From Candidatus Oxydemutator sp. (GTDB lineage: Bacteria > Pseudomonadota > Gammaproteobacteria > Poriferisulfidales > Oxydemutatoraceae), in assembly GCA_965203445.1 (NCBI GenBank), contig OZ241883.1, positions 1,120,001 to 1,184,000 of the forward strand: DNA of 64,000 nt. The letters are read 5' to 3'. The position numbers were made by a program, and so were the translations under genes. The notes under the pieces were generated by a model. The model saw nothing but the letters and a program-made list of their open reading frames with translations, ran no database searches and was not told the origin of the DNA. Each line of letters starts with the position of its first letter. Positions within the stretch are counted from its first letter, which is position 1. Below are positions 4,220-18,449 of the stretch, in pieces.

Positions 4220-6433
4220 ATGGCATCCAGGAAAAAATCAAGAAGAAGCCGTAAAAAGGGCGCGGCAAGGCCCGCCGGCGCACCGCAAAGCGCCGGCGCA
4301 TCGGCGATCGTCGCCGACCAGTCGAAGGGCCGCGCGGCACCGGCGACGGACGTTCGCCCCGCGCGTACGCGCGGCGCGTCTATAAAAAACAGCGGTGCCG
4401 CGCCCGTGCTCTCGCGCGCTTTTCTGGCGGAAGCGGACTCCCGCTACAGCTGGGCGTTCGGTATCTTCTTCGGGCTGACCGCGATAGTCTCGCCGTACGG
4501 TCAGACCGCGAACGGTTTCAACCCCGATCTGCACATGGCCGGTTACTTGCAGGTGGGCAGTCTGGCGTTCCTGCTGGCGTATCTGTTTCATTATCTGCGG
4601 CGCGGCCACGATGAACTATTCATGCCGCGCTCGCCCATGGTGTGGATCGTGTTCGCGCTCTATCTGTGGATGGTGGTCTCGATGTTGTGGGCGCACAACT
4701 TTTACGAGGGGTTCGTCAAACTGCTCGACTGGGGCGCCGCGGTCTGCATTTTTGTGCTGATGCTGCTGCTGATCCGCACCAGCCGCACGTTCTACCCCGT
4801 TTTGCTCGGTTTCTACGCGGGCGGTCTCGCCGTGTCCCTGCTCGGCGTCGGCCAGTACCTGTTCGCGCTCGACTGGGTGCAGCAGCACCAGGCGCCGGCG
4901 GCCACGTTCGGCAACAAAAACATGGCGGGAGAATATCTGGTGTTGGTGGCGCCGCTCGGTATTTGTCTGCTGCTGAACTCCCGCCACAGGCTTGCCGCGT
5001 GGTTTTATGCCATGAGCGGTTCCTTGATCATCGCCTACCTGTTTTACGGGCGCACCCGCGGCTCATGGCTGTCTTTTGCAGCCGAGGTGGTGCTGCTGGC
5101 CGGGTTCTTTCTGTTCGTATGGTTCAAGCATGGTTACAGGCCGTATTGGGATCGCAACAAAACCTATGCTTTTGCAGCCTCGCTTCTGTTTCTCGCGGTG
5201 CTTGTCAACATGCATCCGCACATGTTCAGCGACGGCACCCTCGGCATAGACTCGAGGATCAATCCGTCCGCCGGAGGGACGAAGGCGGACTCTTTCACCG
5301 GTGCGATAGAGTCCGCCTTCGGGACTTTTTGGGAGAGCGCCGATCAACGCTTCGTCATGTGGCTTAATTCGCTTGCGATGTACAAGGATCACTGGTTGCT
5401 GGGAACCGGAATCGGCAACTGGATGGTGTATTACCCGCTGTATCAAGCCGCGGTCGAAATTGACTGGATGCTGACGGGCAACCTGTACCACATCAACGCG
5501 CACAACGACTATGTCGAGTTTCTGTGCGAGTTGGGCCTGGTCGGCGGCGTGCTGATGCTGATGCTGGTCGGAATCATACTGCATACGATGTGGCGCATTA
5601 TCGTGAGACCCGGGATCTCCGATGAAAACCGCGTGTTCGGCGCCGCCGCCTCGGTCAGTATCCTGGGAATCAGCGCCAACGCCGTCTTCAGTTTCCCGTT
5701 GCAGCAGCCGGTGACGATCGCGATGTTCCTGTTCTACCTGGCGATGATACTCTCGGTTGTGAATACCTTGAACGAGGAAGAGCGGGACGTGTACACAATC
5801 AGGCTGCCGTCCCAGCCTTTCAAGATTTTTCTGGTGGCGCTGGTGGGTCTGGGAATGTCCTTCCTGGCGTTCATGCACTACCACTGGTACGTGTCGGAAA
5901 GCCACTACCGCGTCGCCTCGGCCTCGATGAGTCTGGGGCGCTACAAGGTGATGAATCAGTACGCCAAGGTCGCGTTCGAGAACAACCCGATGCGCACCTA
6001 CCTGAACATCTTCCCGGGCTCTTACTACGCCAAGCAGTCGAAATACGACAAGGCCATAGATTATTTCGAGGAGGTGCGCGACGACTATCCGTACCGCATA
6101 GAGATCATGCAGAACCTGGGCGCCTCCTACCTGTATTCCGGAAACAACGACAAGGCTGAGGAAGTGTTCGGACTGTGGCGCAGACTCCAGCCGCACTCCA
6201 TGGATATGCTCAAGTCGTACGGGCTGATGATGTTGCAGTTCGGCAAAAGGGACCAGGCGCGCTATTACCTGACGCGGTCGAAGGAGCTGTTCGAGGAAGC
6301 ACTGGCGCAGGCGATTGCGCACGGGCGCAAGAAGAACGAGCGCCGCCGGCGCATACAGCTGGACGCGGTCAACAAGGCGCTCGCGCACCTGGGGCCGGTC
6401 GCGGCCAAGGCCGCGCCCATGCCGTCCCCATAG
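4220..6433 (+). CDS. O-antigen ligase-like (Wzy_C) membrane protein with C-terminal TPRs; possible O-oligosaccharyltransferase
   Basis: Many TM helices; ATFGNKN, TRGSW, LLGTGIGNW, NAHNDYVEFLCELG motifs; TPR-like tail. Confidence 0.8.
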   Translation: MASRKKSRRSRKKGAARPAGAPQSAGASAIVADQSKGRAAPATDVRPARTRGASIKNSGAAPVLSRAFLAEADSRYSWAFGIFFGLTAIVSPYGQTANGFNPDLHMAGYLQVGSLAFLLAYLFHYLRRGHDELFMPRSPMVWIVFALYLWMVVSMLWAHNFYEGFVKLLDWGAAVCIFVLMLLLIRTSRTFYPVLLGFYAGGLAVSLLGVGQYLFALDWVQQHQAPAATFGNKNMAGEYLVLVAPLGICLLLNSRHRLAAWFYAMSGSLIIAYLFYGRTRGSWLSFAAEVVLLAGFFLFVWFKHGYRPYWDRNKTYAFAASLLFLAVLVNMHPHMFSDGTLGIDSRINPSAGGTKADSFTGAIESAFGTFWESADQRFVMWLNSLAMYKDHWLLGTGIGNWMVYYPLYQAAVEIDWMLTGNLYHINAHNDYVEFLCELGLVGGVLMLMLVGIILHTMWRIIVRPGISDENRVFGAAASVSILGISANAVFSFPLQQPVTIAMFLFYLAMILSVVNTLNEEERDVYTIRLPSQPFKIFLVALVGLGMSFLAFMHYHWYVSESHYRVASASMSLGRYKVMNQYAKVAFENNPMRTYLNIFPGSYYAKQSKYDKAIDYFEEVRDDYPYRIEIMQNLGASYLYSGNNDKAEEVFGLWRRLQPHSMDMLKSYGLMMLQFGKRDQARYYLTRSKELFEEALAQAIAHGRKKNERRRRIQLDAVNKALAHLGPVAAKAAPMPSP

Positions 6434-6441
6434 GCGGAGCG

Positions 6442-7293
6442 ATGGCCGGTTTTACCCTGGCAGGATTGTCTTCGGGCGCGTCGGCCTTTCCCGCCGAGGG
6501 TCTCAACCGCATACTCGGCGCCGTCGCCGTGCTGCTGTTGGTGCCGCTGTGTTTTTACTCGCTTTCCGGCGTGTTCTGGAAACTCTACTACCCCGACCGC
6601 GTGGCCACCGGTTTTGACGTGGCGGCGCCGCAGGCCGGTGCGACCGCGGCCGCCAGACCGCCGGCTTCGTGGGACTGGTTCACCGTCCATGAGGCGCCCA
6701 AGCCGAAGGCGGTGCCGGCGAAGATCAACGCGCGGCTGCTCGGCGTGTTCGGCGTCGGCGACCGCGGCATTGCGATGATCTCGCTCAACAAGGGCAAGCC
6801 GCAGAACTTCCGCGTCGGCGACGAGATCAAGGACGGCGTGGTGCTCGGCAAGCTGGCGCAGGATCACGTCATCCTGTTGCGCGGCGAGCGCGAGGAAGTG
6901 CTGGCGATGAAGAAGTTCAACCTGTTCAACGCGAAGAAGGACGACGGGGCGTTGATCGGCGCCGACGAGCGCGGCATCTCGCGCGATCTCGTGCACAAGA
7001 TGCTCCGCGAGCAGCCGTTGCGCCTGGCGCAGATGGTGCGCTTCGAGCCGGTGCGAAACCGCCGCTACGGGCGCGGCGTCAAAATTACCCCGCGCCGCAG
7101 CGAAAACGAAACCATGTTCTACAATATGGGCTTGATTCCCGGCGACGTGTTGCTCAAGGCCAACGGCCAGAGCATGGAGCAGATAGAACAAAAGCCCGGC
7201 TCGTGGAGGCCGCTGCTTACGGGTAAGAGCGTGCGCCTGGAATTGTTGCGAAATGGAGTATTGCAAAACGTCACGGTCAACCTCGGCAGGTAA
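6442..7293 (+). CDS. gspC: T2SS protein C with PDZ domain
   Basis: TM segment, HR domain (LLGVFG...FRVGDEI...DHVILLRGEREEVL), C-terminal PDZ (GLIPGDVLLKANG); lies directly upstream of gspD. Confidence 0.85.
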   Translation: MAGFTLAGLSSGASAFPAEGLNRILGAVAVLLLVPLCFYSLSGVFWKLYYPDRVATGFDVAAPQAGATAAARPPASWDWFTVHEAPKPKAVPAKINARLLGVFGVGDRGIAMISLNKGKPQNFRVGDEIKDGVVLGKLAQDHVILLRGEREEVLAMKKFNLFNAKKDDGALIGADERGISRDLVHKMLREQPLRLAQMVRFEPVRNRRYGRGVKITPRRSENETMFYNMGLIPGDVLLKANGQSMEQIEQKPGSWRPLLTGKSVRLELLRNGVLQNVTVNLGR

Positions 7294-7303
7294 GGCGCCC
7301 GCG

Positions 7304-9376
7304 ATGCCGACGCCGCTGCCGCGGCGGTTCCGGCGCCGCCTCGCCGCGATCGTGTGGCCGGCGCTCGCGCTGTGGTGGCAGCCGCTGGTGGTCGAGGCGG
7401 CGACGCTGAACTTCCGCGACGTCGACATCCGCCAGATCATCGAGAGCGTGTCCGAGCTGACCGGGCGCAACTTTCTGATTGACCAGCGCGTCAAGGGCAA
7501 GGTCACCATCGTCGCCGCCTCCGAGGTGCCCGACGACGCGGTCTATGACGTCCTGCTGACGGTGCTGGCGATGCACGGCTTTCGCACGGTGGACGCGGGC
7601 AACGGTCTGACCCGCGTGGTGCCGGCCAACGCCGCCGCGCGCTTCTCGCCGCTCGACCTGCCCGAGGGCCTGACCACCGAGATCATCAAGATCAACCATT
7701 TGAACGCCGCCGGTGTCGTGCCGATGGTGCGCCCGCTGATGACCGGCGAGGCGCAGGTTACCGTGCACAAGGAGACCAACAGCATCATCGTAACCGAACT
7801 TCAGGCCAACCTGACCCGCATCAAGGACATCATCGAGGTGCTAGACCGCAAGACTCTCGGCGAATATGAAATCATCGAGCTGAAGAGAACCAAGGCCAAC
7901 GATCTCGTCAACCTGGTGCAGCGCGCGCGCAGCCAGCAGACCAAGCACTTGGCCGAGGTCATCGCCGACCCCCGCACCAACCGCGTGATCCTGGTGGGTG
8001 CGCCCGAACTGCGCCTGCCGCTGCGCGCGATGATCGCCGAGCTCGACACGCTGCCGGACACCGAGGACGCCGGTCGCGGCGTGGTACGCGTGCTCCACCT
8101 GAACTACGCCGACGCCGAGGAGATGAAGGAAATCCTCAAAGGTCTGCTGACCAAGCAGTTTCTCGACCTGGCGCAGGAGGGCGCCGACGTCAGCGATAGC
8201 GGCGACCAGAAGGAGGACGACAAAAAAGACGACAAGAAAGAAGACAAGAAAGACGACGACAAAAAGGAAGAAGACAAGAAAGACGACAAGGACGACGACA
8301 AACGCTACACGGTGCAGGCCGACCCGGCCACCAACGTGCTGATCATCAGCGGCCCGTCGAACATCGTGCAGGCGATAGAAAGCGTCGTCAAGGAACTCGA
8401 CGTGCCGCGCCCGCAGGTGTTCATCGAGGCGATTATTGCCGAGATCACGCTGAATAAGACGGCAGATGTACAGACGCGGTTGAGTGGCGGCAAAGATGGA
8501 GAACCATTCCCGGGCAGCTCGGCGATTACCTCTCTGGAGGGACTTTTCACCGCGTTTGATTTCACGCGGGCGTCACCGGCAGCAGGCACTTTTCTGGGAG
8601 GAAAGATAGACAATGTAACCATTGGCCTGTTCGTACAAGCCCTCCGAACCGATGAGAATACTAATATTCTCTCGACTCCATCGGTGATGACGTTGAACAA
8701 TGAGCGGGCAGTGATTACGATTGGTACTCAGAGGACTTTCGACACAGGCGCAGTTCTTATCGCCGGACAAGGTGGTAGCGGCGCAGACAGGCTGGAAAGA
8801 CGAGACGTGGATACGGTACTCGAAGTTACGCCACAGATCACAAAGGGGGACGTGGTGCGCCTTGAGATCAAGCAGTCGGTCAATCGGGTTCAGGCAGGTC
8901 AGGAGAACAGCCAAACCCCCAATACGTTCAAGCGCGAAATCGAGACTGACGTTGTCGTCAACGACAAGGAAGTCGTGATTCTTGGTGGCCTTCTCGAGGA
9001 GCGGCGTACCGATGAGAGAGACAGAGTGCCTCTGTTGAGCGATATTCCGGTGATCGGCTGGCTTTTCAAGGGTCGTTCGAGCGACCGCGACAAGACCAAC
9101 CTGATGGTGTTTATCCGCCCGACGATCTTCCGCGAGCCGGACGCGGCCAACGAGGAAGCCGTGAACCGCTACGTGCAGCTGCGCCTCGATCAGCTCGAGA
9201 ACCTGGAAACGGTGGACAGCCTGCTGGCCGAAGAGGAAAGAACGATGCTGCTGCCGACGCTGAACAAAGAGCGCGAACTCAGACGCGACGCCAAGCGCAA
9301 GGCCAAGCGCGACCAACGCCGCAAACCCCGCAAAAAACGCAAACCCCGCCGCCCCTCCGGCAACAACCCGTCGTAA
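7304..9376 (+). CDS. gspD: T2SS secretin
   Basis: LNFRDVDIRQIIESVSELTGRNF, LDVPRPQVFIEAIIAE, NILSTPS, VPLLSDIPVIGWLF, KTNLMVFIRPTI. Confidence 0.95.
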   Translation: MPTPLPRRFRRRLAAIVWPALALWWQPLVVEAATLNFRDVDIRQIIESVSELTGRNFLIDQRVKGKVTIVAASEVPDDAVYDVLLTVLAMHGFRTVDAGNGLTRVVPANAAARFSPLDLPEGLTTEIIKINHLNAAGVVPMVRPLMTGEAQVTVHKETNSIIVTELQANLTRIKDIIEVLDRKTLGEYEIIELKRTKANDLVNLVQRARSQQTKHLAEVIADPRTNRVILVGAPELRLPLRAMIAELDTLPDTEDAGRGVVRVLHLNYADAEEMKEILKGLLTKQFLDLAQEGADVSDSGDQKEDDKKDDKKEDKKDDDKKEEDKKDDKDDDKRYTVQADPATNVLIISGPSNIVQAIESVVKELDVPRPQVFIEAIIAEITLNKTADVQTRLSGGKDGEPFPGSSAITSLEGLFTAFDFTRASPAAGTFLGGKIDNVTIGLFVQALRTDENTNILSTPSVMTLNNERAVITIGTQRTFDTGAVLIAGQGGSGADRLERRDVDTVLEVTPQITKGDVVRLEIKQSVNRVQAGQENSQTPNTFKREIETDVVVNDKEVVILGGLLEERRTDERDRVPLLSDIPVIGWLFKGRSSDRDKTNLMVFIRPTIFREPDAANEEAVNRYVQLRLDQLENLETVDSLLAEEERTMLLPTLNKERELRRDAKRKAKRDQRRKPRKKRKPRRPSGNNPS

Positions 9377-10019: not shown

Positions 10020-10255
10020 AGGAAGCCGTGAACCGCTACGTGCAGCTGCGCCTCGATCAACTCGAGAACCTGGAAACGGTCGACAGCCTGCTGGCCGAAG
10101 AGGAAAGAACGATGCTGCCGACGTTGAACAAAGAACGCGAACTCAAACGCGACGCCAAACACGGCGCCAAACGCAAGGCCAAGCGCGACCAACGCCGCAA
10201 ACCCCGCAAAAAACGCAAGTCCAGAACCCGTCGCTCCGACGGAAGCTCGTCGTAA
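10020..10255 (+). repeat. Diverged duplicate of the gspD 3' end (copy of 9153-9376)
   Basis: AGGAAGCCGTGAACCGCTACGTGCAGCTGCGCCTCGATCA... is nearly identical to the gspD end, with small indels and its own TCGTAA stop. Confidence 0.9.
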
Positions 10256-10619
10256 AAATCGGCGGCTTGTCGCGTGGCCACCCGCGTCGCCGTCGCTTGC
10301 GCCGCTCCTTTTTTCTGCGCCCCCACCGCGCCACAAGCCGTCTTCCCGATACCGTCAGGTGCTCTCCCGCCACCGGGGATGGGGCGCGTCGTCAGCGATT
10401 TTACCGTTCGTCGGATAAATGGTGCCTTTTGTTCCGTTTGTGATTATGCTGCCTGAATGACCGCGGCAGAGTAGCCCTTTTCAACCTGAAAGAGGCTGCC
10501 ATGCAAAACATCATGACAAAACAGACCGACAACCCGCAAGCGAAACAACCGGACGCGCTACCGGTGAACTGGAACGCCCCGGTCACCCGCGGCCAGTTTG
10601 AAACGACCATGGTCGCGAT

Positions 10620-11000
10620 GCGCGCCGATCTGGAAAGCCAGATAGCGGGCCTTCGTTCCGATCTGGAAAGCCAGATAGCGGGCCTTCGTTCCGACCTGGA
10701 AGGACAGATAGCAGGTCTGCGGAGCGATATGGTGGCGATGCGCGCCGACCTGGAAGGACAGACAGCAGGCCTGCGGAGCGACATGGTGGCGATGCGCGCC
10801 GATCTGGCAGGGCAGATAGCAAGCCTTCGTTCCGATCTGGAAAGCCAGGTAGCGAGCTTTCGTTCCGACCTGGAAAGCCAGATAGCGAGCTTTCGTTCCG
10901 ACCTGGAAGGACAGATAGTGAGTCTGCGCGCCGATCTGGCAGGGCAGACAGCGGGCCTTCGTTCCGATCTGGAAGGCCAGATAGCGAGGCTTCGTGCCGA
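10620..11000 (+). repeat. 33-bp tandem repeats encoding hendecads
   Basis: Units such as CTTCGTTCCGATCTGGAAAGCCAGATAGCGGGC recur about ten times with variation. Confidence 0.85.
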
Positions 11001-11181
11001 CATGATGGAGATGCGCGCCGATATTGACCGGCGCATCACCGGAGTCGAACTGCGGCTCGACCGCAGAATATCCGATCTCGAATCGCGGATGATCCGCTGG
11101 CAGATCATAACGGGAATTACATACTTTAATCCGTGAAGGATAGTGAAGTAGCTGATTTTATGTAAGATTTTGTTATAATGT

Positions 11182-12468
11182 TTGAGAATGAAGGTTCATA
11201 GAACAATTCGATACAGGCTGCATGCCGGCACGCATGCCAAAGCCCGCAAGTTGGCGGGTTTGGCGGGTGCGTGCAGGTTTGTGTGGAACCATTTTGTAGG
11301 AAAGTTACGGGATGAGTATATAGCATATGGAAGATGCAGGCCTTGGTATTTTACATTGGGCAAGCAGTTCACTCTGTTGCGACGTTATTGTGAACCCTGG
11401 TTGCAGGAATACTCGGCCAACATAGTAAAGAGTTCTTTGAAGCCCATAGAAACTGCGTACAAGAAGTTCTATGACAAGAAAGGAGGACTCCCTAGGTTTC
11501 ATGCAAGATATGTACATCATGAGAGTTTCCCTTTGGTATCTGGTTTGTTTCGTATAAGGGGTCGCCATTTGCATATAGCCAAGATAGGCGAGGTGCTGTT
11601 GCTTGGCCATAATCCGTATCCCGATGCAAAGCCCGTGTCGGGCACAGTCAAAAGGGAATGCGGGAATTGGTATGCATACATAGTGTATAAAGTGGAACAG
11701 AAAGAAGTTAAACGTGAATATAATTCAGTAGGCATAGACAGAAATGTAGGTCAAATAACATGCTCGGATGGGATAGTTTATCGAATGCCTGATACTACTC
11801 GATTAGAGGCGCGTCGTCGTCGTTATCAGCGGATGATGGCGAGGCGGAAGTGCGGTAGCAGGAAGCACAAGGTAAAACCCTCTAATCGCTATCTGCGTGC
11901 CAAGCATTCCCATGCCATAACGTGCAGGAAGATAAAGCAAAAGAGGAACAACTGGTGTCATCATGTAAGCAGTGAGATAGCAGAGAATTATTCTGTAGTG
12001 CATTTGGAGGATTTGAATACGAGGGGCATGACGAGGGGTGCCAAGGGCACGGCTACTGCCCCTGGCAGGAATGTGAAGGCCAAGTCGAGCCTGAACAAAG
12101 GAATACTACGTACGAACTGGTATAAATTAGAGCAGTATTTGGGTTACAAAACCCAAGTAAATTATGTATCTGCAAAGAACACGAGTCGTGCTTGCAACAA
12201 GTGCGGATGTATAAACGAGAAGAACAGAGTATCGCAATCAATGTTTGTTTGTGTTGATTGCGGCCATCGAGACAATGCGGACTGGAACGCCGCCAAGAAT
12301 GGCAAAGTTCTGGGCGATGCTACACTGAATTACAAGGCCTCCGGGAATGGGGCTACTGGACGCGGAGGTGGCGGTAAGACCTTGAAGGAATTATTAACCG
12401 ACAAGGCACGGCCTGTGAAGCGTCAAATGGATACTTCAATCTCAGAGAATAATGTTCTCACGGATTAA
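11182..12468 (+). CDS. tnpB: RNA-guided endonuclease TnpB (start TTG 11182 or ATG 11188)
   Basis: N-terminal HTH (TIRYRL...GACRFVWN), RuvC-I GIDRNV, RuvC-II HLEDL, zinc finger CNKC...CVDC, RuvC-III NADWNAAKN; extended -10 TGTTATAAT at 11171-11179. Confidence 0.92.
   Translation: MRMKVHRTIRYRLHAGTHAKARKLAGLAGACRFVWNHFVGKLRDEYIAYGRCRPWYFTLGKQFTLLRRYCEPWLQEYSANIVKSSLKPIETAYKKFYDKKGGLPRFHARYVHHESFPLVSGLFRIRGRHLHIAKIGEVLLLGHNPYPDAKPVSGTVKRECGNWYAYIVYKVEQKEVKREYNSVGIDRNVGQITCSDGIVYRMPDTTRLEARRRRYQRMMARRKCGSRKHKVKPSNRYLRAKHSHAITCRKIKQKRNNWCHHVSSEIAENYSVVHLEDLNTRGMTRGAKGTATAPGRNVKAKSSLNKGILRTNWYKLEQYLGYKTQVNYVSAKNTSRACNKCGCINEKNRVSQSMFVCVDCGHRDNADWNAAKNGKVLGDATLNYKASGNGATGRGGGGKTLKELLTDKARPVKRQMDTSISENNVLTD
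12330..12446 (+). ncRNA. Putative TnpB omegaRNA 3' scaffold and guide (boundaries approximate)
   Basis: GC-rich structured stretch overlapping the tnpB 3' end (GCCTCCG...CGGAGGT) that ends in GTGAAGCGTCAA, an IS605-like TCAA end at 12423-12426; inferred from TnpB biology. Confidence 0.45.
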
Positions 12469-12575
12469 AGTATATAATTCCCATTATAACGATGGTTACC
12501 CTGACTGGCGTTATCATCGCGGCAGCCGGGTATCTTTCAAGCATTCCGTCCTGAAGGAGAGCACGATGCAGTCAC

Positions 12576-12600
12576 AAAATCCCGATGGCGGGTTTTTCTT
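12576..12600 (+). terminator. Intrinsic terminator of the interrupted coiled-coil gene
   Basis: AAAATCCCG-ATGG-CGGGTTTTTCTT. Confidence 0.55.
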
Positions 12601-12780
12601 GTTGCGGCTTTGCAGAACAGGAGTGTACGAACGCCTCCTTCGCTCCCTTTCCCGCCGGGAGGGGGGTTATGCGCTGCGCTCTGGTTTGGCACGGGCCGCG
12701 CGGGCCGCGTGGGAGTGTACGGGCGCCGGGGTGCTACAATACCGTGTCGAACCAATTCCGCCGTTGATTTGCACCTCCCC

Positions 12781-14616
12781 ATGTACCAGTCCTACTTCAA
12801 CTTCTCGGAAGACCCGTTCACGATTTCGCCGAATCCTCGGTTTCTGTATTTGAGCGAGCGCCACCGCGAGGCGCTTGCGCATTTGCAGTACGGCGTGCGC
12901 GAGAACAGCGGCTTTATTCTGCTCACCGGCGAGGTCGGCACCGGCAAGACCACCGTGTGGCGCTGTCTTGCCAGCCGGCTGCCGGACGACGTTCATCTGG
13001 CCGTCGTGTTGAACCCGCGCCTGAGCGAGAGCGAGCTGGTCGAGTCCATCTGCGACGAGTTCGGCGTCGCCTGCGAACCGGCGGGCCGTGGCCTCAAGCG
13101 CCTGGTGGACGCGCTCAACCGCCACCTGCTCGCGCTGCACGAGCGTGGCGAGCGCGCGGTGCTGATCGTCGAGGAGGCGCAAAACCTAGACGCGACGCTG
13201 CTCGAACAACTGCGCCTGCTGACCAACCTGGAGACCGACGAAAGCAAACTGTTGCAGATCATCCTGGTGGGCCAGCCCGAGCTGCTGGACAAGATAGACG
13301 GCCCGCAACTGCGCCAGCTGCGCCAGCGCGTCACCGCGCGCTATCACCTGACGTCGCTGGACGCGGACGAAGTGCGCGCCTACGTCGCCCACCGCCTGGA
13401 GATGGTCGGCGGCGGCCTCGGCCTGTTCACCGAGCAGGCGTTGTTGCGCCTGACCCGCGTAAGCGCCGGCATTCCGCGCCTGATCAACCTGATTTGCTCG
13501 CGCGCGCTGCTTGGCTGTTTTTCCGAGGACAAGAGGCAGGTGGACTTGCGCGTCATCGAGCAGGCGGCGCACGAAGTGTTGGGAGAGAAGCCGGAGCAGG
13601 CGGCGTTCGCGTCGCCGCTCTCATCGCCGGCGCCGTTCGGCGTGACGCCGCGCCGGGGACTCGCCGTCGCCGCCGGTCTCGCGTTGCTGGCCGCCGGCAT
13701 CTGGTTGTACGGCGGTTCGTTGTCGGCACCCGATGATCCGCCGCTGCTGGTGCAAGGCGACGGGCCGAAGGCTGCGTCGGAAGTCGCACGGGCGGCCGAG
13801 GAGAAGAGTGTCGGCTTGGTGGCTGCGGCGCCTCCCGTATCGCAAGTGCCCCAATCACCGCCGGTCGCGCATACCCTCTGGGTACAGCGCCCGGGTTCGA
13901 TTACGGCGCCCGCCGCCGGTTCGCTTGCCGCCCCCGCCGCGCCGCCGCGCGCCGAACCCGCCGCCGACTGGCGCGATGGGGTTGCCGCAAAGACGCCCGG
14001 CGAAGCGCCGGACAGCGGCCCGTATCGCGCGTTGTTCGCGTTGTGGGGCGTCGAGCTGCCGCGCGAACTGACCGAATCGCCGTGCGAATACGCGCTGCGC
14101 CACGGGCTGGATTGCTGGCATCGTCGCGGCTCTTTCGACAGCGTCGAGCGCGTCAACCGCCCGGCGTTGCTGAAGATGGTCGCAAGGCGCGGCGGGCAGC
14201 CTTTCTACGCGGTGTTGAACGGCGTCACCGCCGACGGCTTGCTGCAAATGAACGTGGCCGGCGCCGCCATAGCCGTCGCGCGACGGGAATTGGAAGAGGT
14301 GTGGACCGGCGAATACACTTTGTTGTGGCGCCGCCCGTCCGGCTATATAGATACCATCTACCCGGGCGACAAGAACGACACGGTGCGCTGGGTCGCGCGA
14401 CAGCTCGCGGGGCTGATGAACAACCCGCCGCTGGCGCGACATTCTTCGGTGTATTCTCCGGCCCTCGAAAACCACGTGCGCGGTTTTCAGCACCACTGCG
14501 GGCTTTTTGTCGACGGCCTGGTCGGCAAGGAGACGCTGATCCGGCTGAGCGCGCTGGTGCGCAAGGAACCACTTTTGCGCGACGACGCGCCGTCGTGCCG
14601 CTCGCGCCTGGGATAG
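12781..14616 (+). CDS. gspA: T2SS ExeA/GspA AAA ATPase with peptidoglycan-binding domain
   Basis: MYQSYFNFSEDPFTISPNPRFLYLS, GEVGTGKT, C-terminal VRGFQ...GLFVDGLVGKET. Confidence 0.92.
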   Translation: MYQSYFNFSEDPFTISPNPRFLYLSERHREALAHLQYGVRENSGFILLTGEVGTGKTTVWRCLASRLPDDVHLAVVLNPRLSESELVESICDEFGVACEPAGRGLKRLVDALNRHLLALHERGERAVLIVEEAQNLDATLLEQLRLLTNLETDESKLLQIILVGQPELLDKIDGPQLRQLRQRVTARYHLTSLDADEVRAYVAHRLEMVGGGLGLFTEQALLRLTRVSAGIPRLINLICSRALLGCFSEDKRQVDLRVIEQAAHEVLGEKPEQAAFASPLSSPAPFGVTPRRGLAVAAGLALLAAGIWLYGGSLSAPDDPPLLVQGDGPKAASEVARAAEEKSVGLVAAAPPVSQVPQSPPVAHTLWVQRPGSITAPAAGSLAAPAAPPRAEPAADWRDGVAAKTPGEAPDSGPYRALFALWGVELPRELTESPCEYALRHGLDCWHRRGSFDSVERVNRPALLKMVARRGGQPFYAVLNGVTADGLLQMNVAGAAIAVARRELEEVWTGEYTLLWRRPSGYIDTIYPGDKNDTVRWVARQLAGLMNNPPLARHSSVYSPALENHVRGFQHHCGLFVDGLVGKETLIRLSALVRKEPLLRDDAPSCRSRLG

Positions 14617-14626
14617 GAGGGCCGTC

Positions 14627-15403
14627 GTGTCGTACATACTCTCCGCGTTGAAGAAGGTCGAACGCAAGCGCCAGGTCGGACAACCGCCGGACTTGCTGGC
14701 GATGCACGTCGAACCGGGCGCGGCTTCCGGCTATCGGGACAACCCGGCTTCCGGCGTACTCAAAGTGCTCGTGGTGACCGGGATCATCGCCGCCGCCGTC
14801 GCCTGGTCTTTGTCGCCGTCCGGCGCGCGCACGATGGACTGGCTTGGTCAGCGTTGGAGCGCGCTTACGCTGCCGCGACTTGCGATCTCGTCCGGCGATG
14901 CGCCGCCCGCTGACGCTGCCGTCGTCGACAAGCCGGCCTATAGAACCGTCACCGTGCGCGAGTTCACCCCGTCGCCCGGCGTCGCGCCGAGGCGTGGTGC
15001 CGTCGCCGACCACTCCGCTGCGGCGCCCGCCGTCGTCGCGCCCGCGCCACAGGCGCGGCCTGCATACGCCGCGCCCGTGCAAGTTGCGCCTGCGCCGTTC
15101 GACGCATTCGCGCCCGCTGCACCGCCGGCGTTCGACGTGGCCTTGCTGCCCGCTGCCGAGGTGGTTGATTTCGAGCACCTGCCCGCGCCCGTGCGCGCCC
15201 GGCTTCCGGTGCTGTCGGTAACCGGGCATCTCTACTCCAGCGCGCGCCCGCAGGCGAACAAGATTTTCATCAACGGCGCGGCGTTGCGCGAGGGCCAGTT
15301 TGTCAACGAAGAGCTGATGGTGCGCGAGATCACCGCCGCCGGCGCCGTCATGGAGTTTCACGGCGTGCGTTTTCGTCTCGGGAAGTCGAGGATATTCCGC
15401 TGA
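14627..15403 (+). CDS. gspB: T2SS ExeB/GspB
   Basis: MSYILSALKKVERKR N-terminus and GHLYSS...INGAALREGQ C-terminal domain. Confidence 0.88.
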   Translation: MSYILSALKKVERKRQVGQPPDLLAMHVEPGAASGYRDNPASGVLKVLVVTGIIAAAVAWSLSPSGARTMDWLGQRWSALTLPRLAISSGDAPPADAAVVDKPAYRTVTVREFTPSPGVAPRRGAVADHSAAAPAVVAPAPQARPAYAAPVQVAPAPFDAFAPAAPPAFDVALLPAAEVVDFEHLPAPVRARLPVLSVTGHLYSSARPQANKIFINGAALREGQFVNEELMVREITAAGAVMEFHGVRFRLGKSRIFR

Positions 15404-16884
15404 TGGCCGAAGTCAGAGGGGCGCGTCTGCCGTTCGCGTTCGCCCAGAAACACGGCTTGTTCGTCGGCGAGAGCGAGGGCGCGCTGCGGCTGTTCTGCCG
15501 TTCCGACGTGTCCATGAACGCGCTGCAGGAAGTGCGGCGCATGTTCAACCGCGAGTTCTCGCTGCGTATGCTCGATGCCGGCGAGTTCGACCAGAACCTG
15601 CAGAAGACCTACGCCAACCAGAGCGGCGGCTTGTCCTTCATGAGCGACGTCGAAGACCACGTCATGGGCATGGACGAGGTCGCCGCGGCCTTCGAGGAGC
15701 CGGAGGATCTGCTCAAGACCGAGGACGACGCGCCGATCATCAAGATGCTCAACGCGATCTTTTTCGAGGCGATCCGCGAGCGCGCCTCCGACATCCACGT
15801 CGAGCCTTACGAGCGCGACCTGCAGATCCGCTTTCGCTTAAACGGCGTGTTGCGCACGATGCTGACCTCGTCGGTCAAGCTGGCGCCGTTGCTGGTGTCG
15901 CGCGTCAAGGTGCTGGCGCGCCTCGACATCGCCGAAAAACGCCTGCCGCAGGACGGGCGTATCACCGTGCGCCTGGGCGGGCGCAGCGTGGATTTGCGCG
16001 TGTCCACGCTGCCGTCGAGCTACGGCGAGCGCGTGGTGTTGCGCATACTCGACAAGCAGACCGAGCAGATGCAGTTGGTGCAGTTGGGCATGGAGTCCGA
16101 GATGCAAAAACGCTTTCACAGCATGGTCAACCGCCCGCACGGCATCGTTCTCGTAACCGGCCCGACCGGTTCGGGCAAGACGACGACGCTCTACGCGGCG
16201 CTGGCCGAGGTCGACCGCCGCCAGCGCAACATCATGACGATAGAAGACCCCATCGAGTACGACTTCGAGGGCATCAGCCAGACGCAGGTCAACACCAAGG
16301 CCGGCATGACCTTTGCGCGCGGCCTGCGGGCGATTTTGCGCCAGGACCCCGACGTCGTGCTGATCGGCGAGATCCGCGACGGCGAGACCGCCGACATCGC
16401 GGTGCAGGCGAGCCTGACCGGCCACCTGGTGCTGTCGACGTTGCACACCAACACCGCCTTGGGCGCGATCACGCGCCTGTGCGACATGGGCGTCGAGCCG
16501 TTTCTGCTGACCGCGACGCTGCAAGGCACGCTCGCGCAACGCCTGGTCAGGCGGTTGTGTCCCGAGTGCCGCGAGTCGTTCATGCCCGACCTCGACGAAC
16601 TCAAGTTCTGGGACATAGACCCCGACAATTTCCGCGCCCAACCGGTGTACCGCCCGAAAGGCTGCGAGGCGTGCCACCACACCGGCTACTCCGGGCGCTT
16701 CGGCCTGTTCGACTTCGTCGTAATGGACGACGTGCTGCGCCAGATCATCCACGACGGCGGCAGCGAGCTGGACATGGAGCAGCACGTCCGCAAAACCCAG
16801 CCCAACCTCAGAACCATCGGCCTGCAATACGCATTCTCCGGCGACACGTCGTTAGAGGAAGTGCTGGCGGTAACGCTGCATTAG
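15403..16884 (+). CDS. gspE: T2SS ATPase
   Basis: ASDIHVEP, GPTGSGKTTTLY, LRQDPDVVLIGEIRD, CPEC...CEAC. Confidence 0.96.
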   Translation: MAEVRGARLPFAFAQKHGLFVGESEGALRLFCRSDVSMNALQEVRRMFNREFSLRMLDAGEFDQNLQKTYANQSGGLSFMSDVEDHVMGMDEVAAAFEEPEDLLKTEDDAPIIKMLNAIFFEAIRERASDIHVEPYERDLQIRFRLNGVLRTMLTSSVKLAPLLVSRVKVLARLDIAEKRLPQDGRITVRLGGRSVDLRVSTLPSSYGERVVLRILDKQTEQMQLVQLGMESEMQKRFHSMVNRPHGIVLVTGPTGSGKTTTLYAALAEVDRRQRNIMTIEDPIEYDFEGISQTQVNTKAGMTFARGLRAILRQDPDVVLIGEIRDGETADIAVQASLTGHLVLSTLHTNTALGAITRLCDMGVEPFLLTATLQGTLAQRLVRRLCPECRESFMPDLDELKFWDIDPDNFRAQPVYRPKGCEACHHTGYSGRFGLFDFVVMDDVLRQIIHDGGSELDMEQHVRKTQPNLRTIGLQYAFSGDTSLEEVLAVTLH

Positions 16885-16888
16885 GAAA

Positions 16889-17101
16889 ATGAAAACCAAA
16901 AAACGAAAACGCACCGGCGCCCGAACCCATGCCTGGGGCATACCGGATTTGTTTTATCCGGACCCTAAGGAGGTCTATGCAAGATTCAGCGATGATTTGG
17001 ATGTCGCTGATAAACTTACTTATTATGGCGCTGCACTGCGGCCATACTTTCTTGCTGCCCTCGATCAAGCGAGTGAGGACGTCGAGAAGGACAAAGCCTG
17101 A
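16889..17101 (+). CDS. Small hypothetical protein (70 aa)
   Basis: Lower-GC ORF with AGGA upstream, between gspE and gspF; no recognisable motif. Confidence 0.4.
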   Translation: MKTKKRKRTGARTHAWGIPDLFYPDPKEVYARFSDDLDVADKLTYYGAALRPYFLAALDQASEDVEKDKA

Positions 17102-17103
17102 TT

Positions 17104-17182
17104 CTCCCTCTCCCTCTGGGAGAGGGTTTCATTATTTGTCCGGCCTTCGGCCACTTTCTCCCAGAGGGTCAAGGTGAGGGGG
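17104..17182. repeat. REP-like hairpin repeat (variant)
   Basis: CCCTCTCCCTCTGGGAGAGGG palindrome followed by a second partial hairpin. Confidence 0.6.
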
Positions 17183-17249
17183 TCGTTCCGGCCTTCACAC
17201 CGGTAAGGGAACGCCCCCAAGGCGTTCCCGAAGTGTATACTCGTTGCCG

Positions 17250-18449
17250 ATGCAGGCATATAACTACCAAGCCTACGACCGCGAGGGCAAGACCCGCAAG
17301 GGGGTGCTCGAGGCCGATTCCGAGCGCCATCTGCGCCAGCAGTTGCGCGAGCAGAAGCTGACGCCGATTGAGATTTCCGCGGTCGGCGCGGCGCGCTCGC
17401 TGTTTCAGTTCCGGCGCAAGCTCGGGCGCGGCGATCTGATGTTGATGACGCGCCAGTTGGCGACGCTGCTCGGTTCCGGTATGCCGCTCGAATCCTGTCT
17501 GCGGTTGATGGCCGAGCAGGCCGAGAACGTGCAGGTCAAGCGGCTGGTGTCGGCGATTCGCGGCCAGCTGACCGAGGGGCACACGCTGGCCTACGCGCTG
17601 CAAAAGGCGCCGGCCGCGTTTCCGTCCGATTACATTGCGACCATATCGGCGGGCGAGGAGACCGGTCATCTGTCGCAGGTGCTGGAACGCCTGGCCGACG
17701 AGGTCGAGCAGTCCGGGCAGGCGCGCCAATCGCTGATGACGGCGTTGATCTACCCGCTGCTGATGTTGACGGTGGCCACGGCCGTGATCATCCTGCTGCT
17801 GGTCAACGTCGTGCCGCAGGTTACGCGCGTGTTCGTGCAGATGAACCAGGAACTGCCGCCGCTGACGTCGGCGCTGATCTCGATCAGCAACTGGCTCAGG
17901 GACTACGGCGTGTATCTGCTGGTCGCGTTCACCGGCGCGCTGACGATTTTCCTGCTGATATTGCGCAACCCCGAGGCCAAGGAGCGCTGGCACAACATGC
18001 TGCTGCAAACGCCGCGTTTCGGCTACTGGCTGGTGGTCGGCAACGTCGCCGGATGGGCGCGCAGTCTCGGCGTTCTGCTCGGCAGCGGCGTGCCGATCAT
18101 GGAGTCGCTGCGCATCGCCGCCGAGCGCGTCGGCAATCTCGCGCTGCGCCGCAACCTGGGCGACGTCGCCGAGCGCGTGCGCGAAGGCGACGGCCTGCAC
18201 CAGGCGCTGCTGAAGAGCAAGCGCTTCCCGCCGTTTCTGATCCACATGGTCAGCAGCGGCGAGTCGAGCGGCACCCTCGACAACATGCTGATCAAGGTCG
18301 CCGACTATTACGACCACCGGATACGCACGCTGGTGGACGCCGGCCTCAAAATGTTCGAGCCGCTATTGGTTATAATAATGGGCGGCATCGTGCTGCTGAT
18401 CGTGATGGCGGTGTTGGTGCCGATTATCCAAATGAACCAGCTGGTGTGA
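17250..18449 (+). CDS. gspF: T2SS inner membrane platform protein F
   Basis: TRQLATLLGSGMPL, AGEETGHL, SGESSGTL, FEPLLVIIMG. Confidence 0.95.
   Translation: MQAYNYQAYDREGKTRKGVLEADSERHLRQQLREQKLTPIEISAVGAARSLFQFRRKLGRGDLMLMTRQLATLLGSGMPLESCLRLMAEQAENVQVKRLVSAIRGQLTEGHTLAYALQKAPAAFPSDYIATISAGEETGHLSQVLERLADEVEQSGQARQSLMTALIYPLLMLTVATAVIILLLVNVVPQVTRVFVQMNQELPPLTSALISISNWLRDYGVYLLVAFTGALTIFLLILRNPEAKERWHNMLLQTPRFGYWLVVGNVAGWARSLGVLLGSGVPIMESLRIAAERVGNLALRRNLGDVAERVREGDGLHQALLKSKRFPPFLIHMVSSGESSGTLDNMLIKVADYYDHRIRTLVDAGLKMFEPLLVIIMGGIVLLIVMAVLVPIIQMNQLV

Follow-up and report, generated by a model that had tools for sequence, protein, structure and literature searches.

A tnpB gene carried between the ends of an IS1595-type insertion sequence (IS) was found in the window analysed here, by which we mean the whole 64,000-nucleotide stretch of contig OZ241883.1 (positions 1,120,001 to 1,184,000) from the Candidatus Oxydemutator sp. 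assembly GCA_965203445.1 (genome G000; a single contig, 100% complete). We propose, with a probability of about 0.7, that this tnpB cassette is moved in trans by an IS1595 transposase and that its TnpB, with a guide RNA (omegaRNA) built on the right transposon end, homes into empty alleles. Judged from sequence, the element would work like an IS605 module of the OMEGA kind (obligate mobile element-guided activity) grafted onto an IS1595 shell. Positions are those of the window unless preceded by a genome (G) or locus (L) number.

The tnpB-only element is 1371 bp in length (11112–12482) and has a GC content of 45.6%, compared with 63.6% genome-wide. Its two terminal inverted repeats (TIRs) differ by one mismatch over 25 bp and constitute the highest-ranked inverted repeat of positions 10500–13200, while the TIR-pair finder returned 0/237 in a shuffled-locus control. 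The element is flanked by 8-bp direct repeats, ATCATAAC on the left and ATTATAAC on the right, which differ by one mismatch. Excising the element with one repeat recovers a 224-aa open reading frame (ORF; 10501–12554), and the rebuilt C-terminus matches an intact paralogue at G000:256783–256953 (58% over 57 aa). The tnpB stop codon (12466–12468) falls within the right TIR. All these features of the element, its ends, its duplication and the restored host ORF had been put forward in the first-pass annotation, and each of them holds.

The empty allele, for which that annotation recommended a search, is present in contigs of runs X2 and X3, which join position 11106 to 12486 and skip 1379 bases, equal to 1371 + 8. 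There is one such contig per run (depths 2.5 and 4; likeness threshold 88). Run X2 is from the same sample as X1, the run in which the locus is best represented, and X3, labelled as a sponge metagenome, is from a second study and represents a related strain. At the joint position the empty site has the left form of the repeat, so the right repeat changed later, after insertion. No circle junction of this element or of its twin copy (described below) was found among the contigs of the runs searched. For the twin, no joint across the site was seen in three runs, and contigs cannot prove the absence of an empty allele.

TnpB is the element's sole ORF and scores 176 bits against the NCBIfam model guided_TnpB (cut-off 100); the IS200_TnpB and IS607_TnpB models give 137 and 80 bits, each below its cut-off. 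Numbered from the ATG at 11188, its RuvC triad comprises D184, E274 and D365, and its zinc finger C336/C339/C355/C358. Homology to the TnpB of ISDra2 spans residues 21–372 (E 1.4e-17), and the best TnpB matches in a plasmid collection share only 30–34% identity and are annotated as TnpB of the IS200/IS605 type. The dN/dS ratio is 0.08–0.10 relative to the two nearest non-twin copies and 0.08–0.23 across 24 G000 pairs (saturated and near-identical pairs excluded), and the D-E-D triad is complete in 78/83 TIR-flanked TnpB proteins.

The end motif of the cassette occurs at 46 sites in G000, and 32 of these make up 16 pairs. Twelve pairs flank tnpB cassettes of 1252–1377 bp at separate sites. Their duplications are perfect in eight cases, carry one mismatch in two (the window copy included), and carry two and four mismatches in one case each. 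The twin of the window cassette, at G000:25458–26828, is 99.93% identical to it and has its own different and perfect duplication. Another pair (G000:1978350–1980965; L001:1851–4466) bounds an intact IS1595 with perfect TIRs and duplication. The transposase of this resident IS1595 is an open frame that matches NF033547 (206 bits, cut-off 75) as well as PF12762 and PF12760, and its passenger gene encodes a fusion of an N6/N4 DNA methyltransferase with an HNH domain. The remaining three pairs represent short or deleted elements. Short TIR-bounded elements observed in G000 are an AT-rich 163-bp miniature inverted-repeat transposable element (MITE; G000:113341–113503) and a 180-bp deleted cassette that retains the tnpB start (G000:757576–757755). 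A broken IS1595 with another methyltransferase is found at G000:512926–514351.

The window cassette agrees with the resident NF033547 element in the type of its ends and in having AT-rich duplications, and the first 15 bases of its right TIR are those of the resident TIR. Three G000 cassettes have TIRs with 1–3 mismatches relative to the resident IS1595, and one has TIRs identical to those of an IS1595 in genome G001. A sister cassette at G000:174463–175774 has ends closer to the resident IS1595 than those of the window copy. The right TIR of the window copy recurs exactly in a cassette (G000:1431141–1432387; left TIR not found) whose TnpB is only 61% identical, so that ends and cargo reassort. 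No match to the Y1 (HUH) transposase model PF01797 or to the IS607 serine-recombinase TnpA model NF033518 was found in G000. The element thus has both the approximately 25-bp TIRs and the 8-bp direct repeats of the IS1595 family and contains no DDE transposase of its own; it is a non-autonomous IS1595 derivative and lies outside IS200/IS605 and IS607. The view in the first-pass annotation that these are true IS1595-type ends is therefore borne out by the TIRs, the 8-bp duplications and the resident IS1595 with related ends. Both the further TIR-tnpB-TIR copies with duplications of their own and the autonomous IS1595 that it proposed to look for are present in G000. Within the family, the ends may belong to the ISNwi1 group. 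On sequence grounds, an IS1595 transposase very probably moves the cassettes, and the mover of the window copy may be the resident transposase or a horizontally passing variant.

Relatives were drawn from 79 genome loci, 74 metagenome loci and stretches of related genomes. After removal of duplicate sites there were 209 TnpB matches, 182 of which reach 250 aa of matched protein and 250 bp of flanking sequence or more. Among TnpBs of at least 33% identity, a TIR pair is present in 90/129 and a duplication with no more than one mismatch in 62, which answers affirmatively the question raised in the first-pass annotation of whether the clade consistently has these ends; below 33% identity this TIR type is found in 1/53. 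The arrangement extends to TnpBs of 33–35% identity in several phyla, whereas the outgroup TnpBs have the customary IS605 hairpin at their ends and, in two cases, a neighbouring Y1 gene. Record titles of the relatives name Gammaproteobacteria, Bacteroidota, Caldilineaceae, Thermodesulfobacteriota and Spirochaetia metagenome-assembled genomes, and by our reading of the record names most are sponge symbionts. IS1595 transposase matches of at least 40% identity have the same TIR type in 31/43 cases, 26 with a perfect duplication, and some of the misses are due to short flanks. A transposase match is also present in 22 of the 24 genomes with a TnpB match (kin genomes, hence not independent).

No element holding both an IS1595 transposase and tnpB was found among the TIR-bounded elements of the loci examined. 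An adjacent transposase and tnpB in genome G015 were considered as one autonomous element and turned out to be two separate elements. The longer cassette elements inspected owe their length to nested IS1380-type or other insertions. An IS1380 transposase is nested in a tnpB cassette at L045:2266–3645, and an IS630-like ORF pair, recognised by eye, is nested in another at L055:2469–3652. A second IS1595 group in genome G009 (L336, L337) consists of 753-bp elements in many copies, with different ends and a short transposase without a zinc ribbon.

A scaffold overlapping the 3′-end of tnpB is conserved among 110 right ends, and the six terminal bases of the element are complementary to the loop of stem 1. 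Covariation was assessed on 60 of these 110 ends, of which 59 are distinct. In the four-helix model 96.3% of cells are paired, compared with 84.2% in shuffles and 33–57% with slid partners; the pseudoknot helix is 93.8% paired and shows an A-U to C-G double change in 18/59 sequences. By covariation only, these results indicate a structured RNA that, as in OMEGA systems, reaches the end of the element and has a pseudoknot preceding the guide. The loop equals the right TIR's own first six bases and not the left's in 19/83 cassettes, and the reverse is seen in 1/83. For the variable stretch that precedes the TIR, pairing is likewise better with the element's own TIR than with foreign TIRs (median) in 83/85 cases. 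Pairing with the own TIR ranks in the best 5% for 31/56 tnpB right ends, compared with 6/59 left ends and 5/35 transposase-element ends.

Neither a conserved subterminal hairpin nor a TCAA-type end was found within cassette right ends, although the outgroup TnpBs have it. An Rfam scan of 10900–12800 gave no match close to the gathering score, and a promoter scan found two sites where 2.4 are expected. Standalone omegaRNA copies were not found in G000, where 15/15 strong nhmmer matches lie within whole or deleted cassettes. We are fairly confident that the predicted omegaRNA ends at the element's last base, takes its pseudoknot strand and its terminal hairpin arm from the right TIR, and would be guided by the duplicated 8 bp and the adjoining flank. 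Given an RNA end and pseudoknot at the element terminus, the right duplication is predicted to supply the guide from its first base onwards.

With a guide that starts at the duplication, the transposon-associated motif (TAM) would be expected directly 5′ of the left duplication. The base at this position is a purine in 60/62 cassettes (43 G, 17 A, 2 T and 0 C), compared with 23/62 on the right side (Fisher p 2e-13) and 29/52 at transposase-element ends (p 9e-8); the purine share further upstream of the cassettes is 53%. Since the transposase's own elements lack the purine mark, it most likely comes from TnpB. Cassettes with G and those with A group together on the TnpB tree by their base (10 changes compared with 16.0 when shuffled; 57 tips), and the TnpB columns that best track it (78, 117, 118 and 120) lie at or next to the TAM-contacting residues F77 and T123 of ISDra2, an association that is confounded by descent. 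TA precedes the left duplication in 9/57 cassettes, which are clustered on the tree, and 39 are G-ended. The TA-marked subclade includes the cassettes of L024 and L264.

These observations suggest a cycle in which a transposase-less cassette would be moved in trans by an IS1595 transposase encoded elsewhere in the genome. The omegaRNA, ending at the last base of the element and using the right TIR as scaffold, would be guided by the duplication and flank, and TnpB would require a short TAM that ends in a purine and immediately precedes the duplicated site on its 5′ side. TnpB would then cut empty alleles, whether these result from loss of the element or arrive from element-free cells, and repair of the cut would copy the cassette back in (homing). 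Filled alleles would be spared: their left junction matches only 8–9 guide bases, and at their right junction the TIR stands in place of a TAM. The purine-ended TAM, the cutting of empty alleles and the homing drive together form the part of the proposal that we hold with less assurance, and we consider it somewhat more probable than not. Both TnpB modes, restoration and homing into element-free alleles, are discussed in a recent review (PMC13565253). IS1595 excision is regarded as replicative in PMC5704250, and if so, restoration may be less important than homing into alleles that come from element-free cells. Twelve G000 guides were compared with the genome and gave no exact second site, only a few matches with two mismatches.

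A second carrier is provided by a related group of ~470-aa TnpBs (~30% identity) at 22 loci (L295–L316; genomes G030, G032, G034, G036, G038, G040, G044, G046 and G026), whose TIRs are of another type than those of IS1595. A TIR pair and an 8-bp duplication were found at 11 of the 22 loci, and in 11/11 of these the base immediately 5′ of the left duplication is G; the stem loop is complementary to the group's own terminus, as in a re-matched pseudoknot. The ends are those of ISL3: four ISL3 transposase elements share them (L351–L354), two of which were scanned (296 and 284 bits; cut-off 180), and G is at the mark position in 1/8 of their ends. End asymmetry in this group was considered as evidence for the pseudoknot and rejected, because the ISL3 transposase elements are equally asymmetric. 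In a FastTree phylogeny of 134 proteins, the IS1595-borne group, the ISL3-borne group and 57 context-less representatives form one clade (support 0.94) that stands apart from the IS605-ended outgroups, while monophyly of the IS1595-borne group alone is weak (0.65). It is plausible that a single DDE-adapted TnpB lineage switched carriers. More tentatively, and with the odds somewhat against it, a transposase-free homing TnpB lineage could pirate DDE insertion sequences that make 8-bp duplications, having switched carrier family (IS1595, ISL3) through changes to a single loop and a single hairpin arm of the guide RNA that let these pair with the new terminal repeat. Its TAM would have relaxed to a near single purine because the carrier does not choose the TAM, and only insertions beside such a base would spread by homing.

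The main rival explanation, because young copies show the mark in full, is target steering, in which TnpB with its RNA would scan for TAMs while holding the IS1595 transposase, and the mark would be made at insertion. Such steering would fit a mark that is near-absolute, equal in young and old copies and absent from transposase-only elements. We consider it unlikely, as the flanks of the twin copies are unrelated and insertion is therefore not guide-directed, and the mark adjoins the duplication exactly where the guide target has to begin. Moreover, the cassette nuclease is intact, whereas RNA-guided transposons, to our knowledge, use inactive effectors, and copies in consensus genomes are already past fixation, such that young ones can bear a selected mark. 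A little less likely again, the mark could arise from a transposase that reads asymmetric cassette ends, with TnpB serving a role other than homing, for example the cutting of incoming DNA or post-segregational effects. The greater asymmetry of cassette TIRs (a mean of 3.3 mismatches compared with 0.4 in transposase elements) favours this possibility. Against it, the G or A state follows the TnpB tree, the mark recurs with ISL3, a different transposase family, and the tracking columns align with or beside F77 and T123, again subject to descent.

It is highly improbable that tnpB is a passive passenger without a working guide RNA, comparable to the methyltransferase-HNH gene of the resident IS1595. 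Cargo is indeed frequent in the IS1595 elements here, 10/26 of which measure 2.0–3.0 kb, with the methyltransferase-HNH gene in L001 as an instance, but purifying selection, the intact triad, the covarying scaffold that uses the TIR and the one-sided flank mark contradict passivity. Finally, the recent nesting of a common IS605/IS1341 element within a MITE to which it is unrelated, for which the IS200/IS605-type TnpB and the two short TIR-bounded elements of 163 and 180 bp might speak, can be set aside almost entirely: the cassettes lack the IS605 hairpin or TCAA end that the outgroups have, which removes this reading, the genome has no Y1, the tnpB ORF and the scaffold extend into the TIR, the arrangement spans 33–35% identity across several phyla, and the 180-bp element is itself a deleted cassette. 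Neither of the two findings that the first-pass annotation named as contradicting capture by DDE ends, a lone IS605 nested in a MITE or the lack of any IS1595 with such ends, was thus made.

Several points weigh against the proposal that an IS1595 transposase moves the cassette and that TnpB homes with a TIR-built guide RNA. The TIRs of the window copy have 5–6/25 mismatches relative to those of the resident transposase, and the nearest found anywhere have four. For the omegaRNA, pairs changed on both sides do not exceed shuffles (268/500), U-U occurs at the covarying pseudoknot pair in 14/110 ends and A-C at the neighbouring pair in seven, and the pseudoknot covariation stems from few lineage events. 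For the TAM, only one base gives a strong signal (p is 0.009–0.03 relative to the right side at positions −10 to −12), and the 26 transposase control elements contain eight copies of one family. Young copies carry the mark in 13/13 cases, which fits insertion bias as well as later selection, and a G directly after the right duplication, which would extend the self-match, is not depleted (11/62 compared with 12/52). Compared with the empty allele, the right duplication is altered at position 3 of the guide, a change that would weaken cutting, so the window copy may cut its own empty allele poorly. Our account also gives no route from a DDE element to a precise empty site, and if IS1595 excision is replicative, restoration after excision is less needed.

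Features of the tnpB cassette and its surroundings in the window. TSD, target-site duplication.
Feature	Position	Strand	Remarks
tnpB, 426 aa from ATG 11188 (428 aa from TTG 11182)	11188..12468	+	RuvC D-E-D and C4 zinc finger intact
IS1595-type cassette, non-autonomous; contents tnpB and predicted omegaRNA only	11112..12482	+	Ends, empty allele, twin copy
Left TIR, 25 bp	11112..11136	+	6 mismatches vs resident IS1595 TIR
Right TIR, 25 bp; doubles as predicted omegaRNA scaffold 3′ end	12458..12482	-	5 mismatches vs resident IS1595 TIR
Left 8-bp TSD ATCATAAC, form present in empty allele	11104..11111	+	
Right 8-bp TSD ATTATAAC, third base changed; predicted guide nt 1–8	12483..12490	+	
Predicted TAM position, immediately 5′ of left duplication; G at 11103	11100..11103	+	Family-wide purine bias
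Predicted omegaRNA stem 1; loop 12343–12348 complementary to 12477–12482 (predicted pseudoknot)	12337..12353	+	
Predicted omegaRNA stem 2 (12359–12363 with 12420–12424) and inner stem	12359..12424	+	
Predicted terminal hairpin; 3′ arm = inner right TIR	12431..12473	+	
Predicted guide: right duplication and host flank	12483..12498	+	Pseudoknot position; length inferred from ISDra2
Host gene, 11-residue-repeat coiled-coil protein, split by element	10501..12554	+	Loses hydrophobic C-terminal segment

The interrupted host protein has weak Pfam matches to CCDC90-like and apolipoprotein families, below cut-off with Nbl1_Borealin_N as the sole exception. Its gene contains an array of 33-bp (11-residue) repeats at 10592–11054, and the copy number differs in the X3 strain. 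The insertion site is located within a type II secretion cluster (6391–9376 and 12781–18449), in which gspC, gspD and an ExeA-type ATPase with a peptidoglycan-binding domain were recognised by Pfam and gspB-, gspE- and gspF-like ORFs by eye. A short ORF at 10028–10255 is a partial 3′-end duplicate (C-terminal tail) of the secretin gene at 7253–9376.

This family allows a direct test of the proposal, as it offers dozens of dated insertion sites, the transposases' own elements as matched control, and an empty allele, and it yields precise predictions of the RNA end, the guide start and the TAM. It would also exemplify an RNA scaffold rebuilt on a foreign transposon end, a step that these nucleases need in order to spread among DDE transposons in the manner of Fanzor. 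If the TAM does amount to approximately one purine, these 400-aa proteins would be candidate wide-range compact editors.

The first-pass annotation regarded the capture of a TnpB by DDE ends, with mobilisation in trans, as an undescribed pairing; this cannot be maintained, as Altae-Tran et al. (2023; PMC10691335) already report such elements. In its accessible portions, that study describes six DDE-associated TnpB branches (DDE-1 to DDE-6) with inverted terminal repeats, and solo TnpBs with matching ends that are mobilised in trans. Its text names IS630 only, and IS1595 appears just in the HMM list of the supplement, which also records a TA motif 8 bp upstream of the DDE-5 end. DDE-5 is mentioned among the branches with rearranged catalytic sites and on plasmids. 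A 2026 review, as far as its accessible sections go, lists ISL2, IS630 and IS1031 as TnpB partners, describes TnpB in prokaryotic DDE transposons as rare, and leaves its benefit open (PMC13565253). Our literature search for TnpB with IS1595, ISXO2 or ISL3 returned no paper on the pairing, which subscription papers or Fig. 4 and the additional files of PMC10691335 may nevertheless name, and a search for sponge symbionts with TnpB returned no relevant paper. Relative to the accessible literature, only the IS1595 partner and the co-adaptation of RNA and transposon end are new, the outline having been known since 2023.

By the descriptions available in PMC10691335, the cassettes resemble the DDE-associated branches in having TIRs, a tnpB 3′-end less than 250 bp from the element end, and solo copies that share the ends of transposase elements. 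Membership of those branches requires a DDE gene within 1 kb of tnpB, whereas none is found in the cassettes here. The TA of DDE-5 has the same geometry as the mark described above, but the D-E-D triad here is canonical, unlike the rearranged catalytic sites of that branch. Co-adaptation between pseudoknot and TIR is a further difference, in that the passages of the study consulted describe none for the DDE branches. The cassettes may be kin of DDE-5 or identical with one of the DDE branches, a comparison made by description.

Like MTnSag1 and tISCpe8, IS1595 elements that carry passenger genes according to PMC5704250, the cassettes have 25-bp TIRs and 8-bp direct repeats; unlike them, they have no cis transposase, and their cargo is an RNA-guided nuclease whose predicted RNA uses the element end. 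They agree with IS200/IS605 elements (including IS1341) in the D-E-D triad and zinc finger of TnpB and differ in having TIRs and a duplication and no Y1. From IS607 they are distinguished by TIRs, a target-site duplication and a G000 genome without a serine-recombinase TnpA. As in ISDra2 (PMC10097598; PDB 8h1j/8bf8), the 3′-end of tnpB contains the scaffold, the terminal bases of the element form a pseudoknot with an internal loop immediately ahead of the guide, and the TAM, here predicted, is 5′ of the target. Unlike ISDra2, the cassette has TIRs and an 8-bp duplication but neither TnpA nor hairpin ends, its six-base pseudoknot strand would derive from the TIR, and the duplication stands between its left end and the predicted TAM, which the transposase does not choose. 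The closest parallel outside prokaryotes is Fanzor1 in eukaryotic DDE transposons, likewise a TnpB-family nuclease in elements with TIRs and target-site duplications that are often non-autonomous. In Fanzor1, as summarised in PMC13565253, the TAM includes the 5′ duplication, the scaffold includes the 3′ duplication, and there is no pseudoknot, whereas in the cassettes the predicted pseudoknot is kept and the duplication is the predicted start of the guide.

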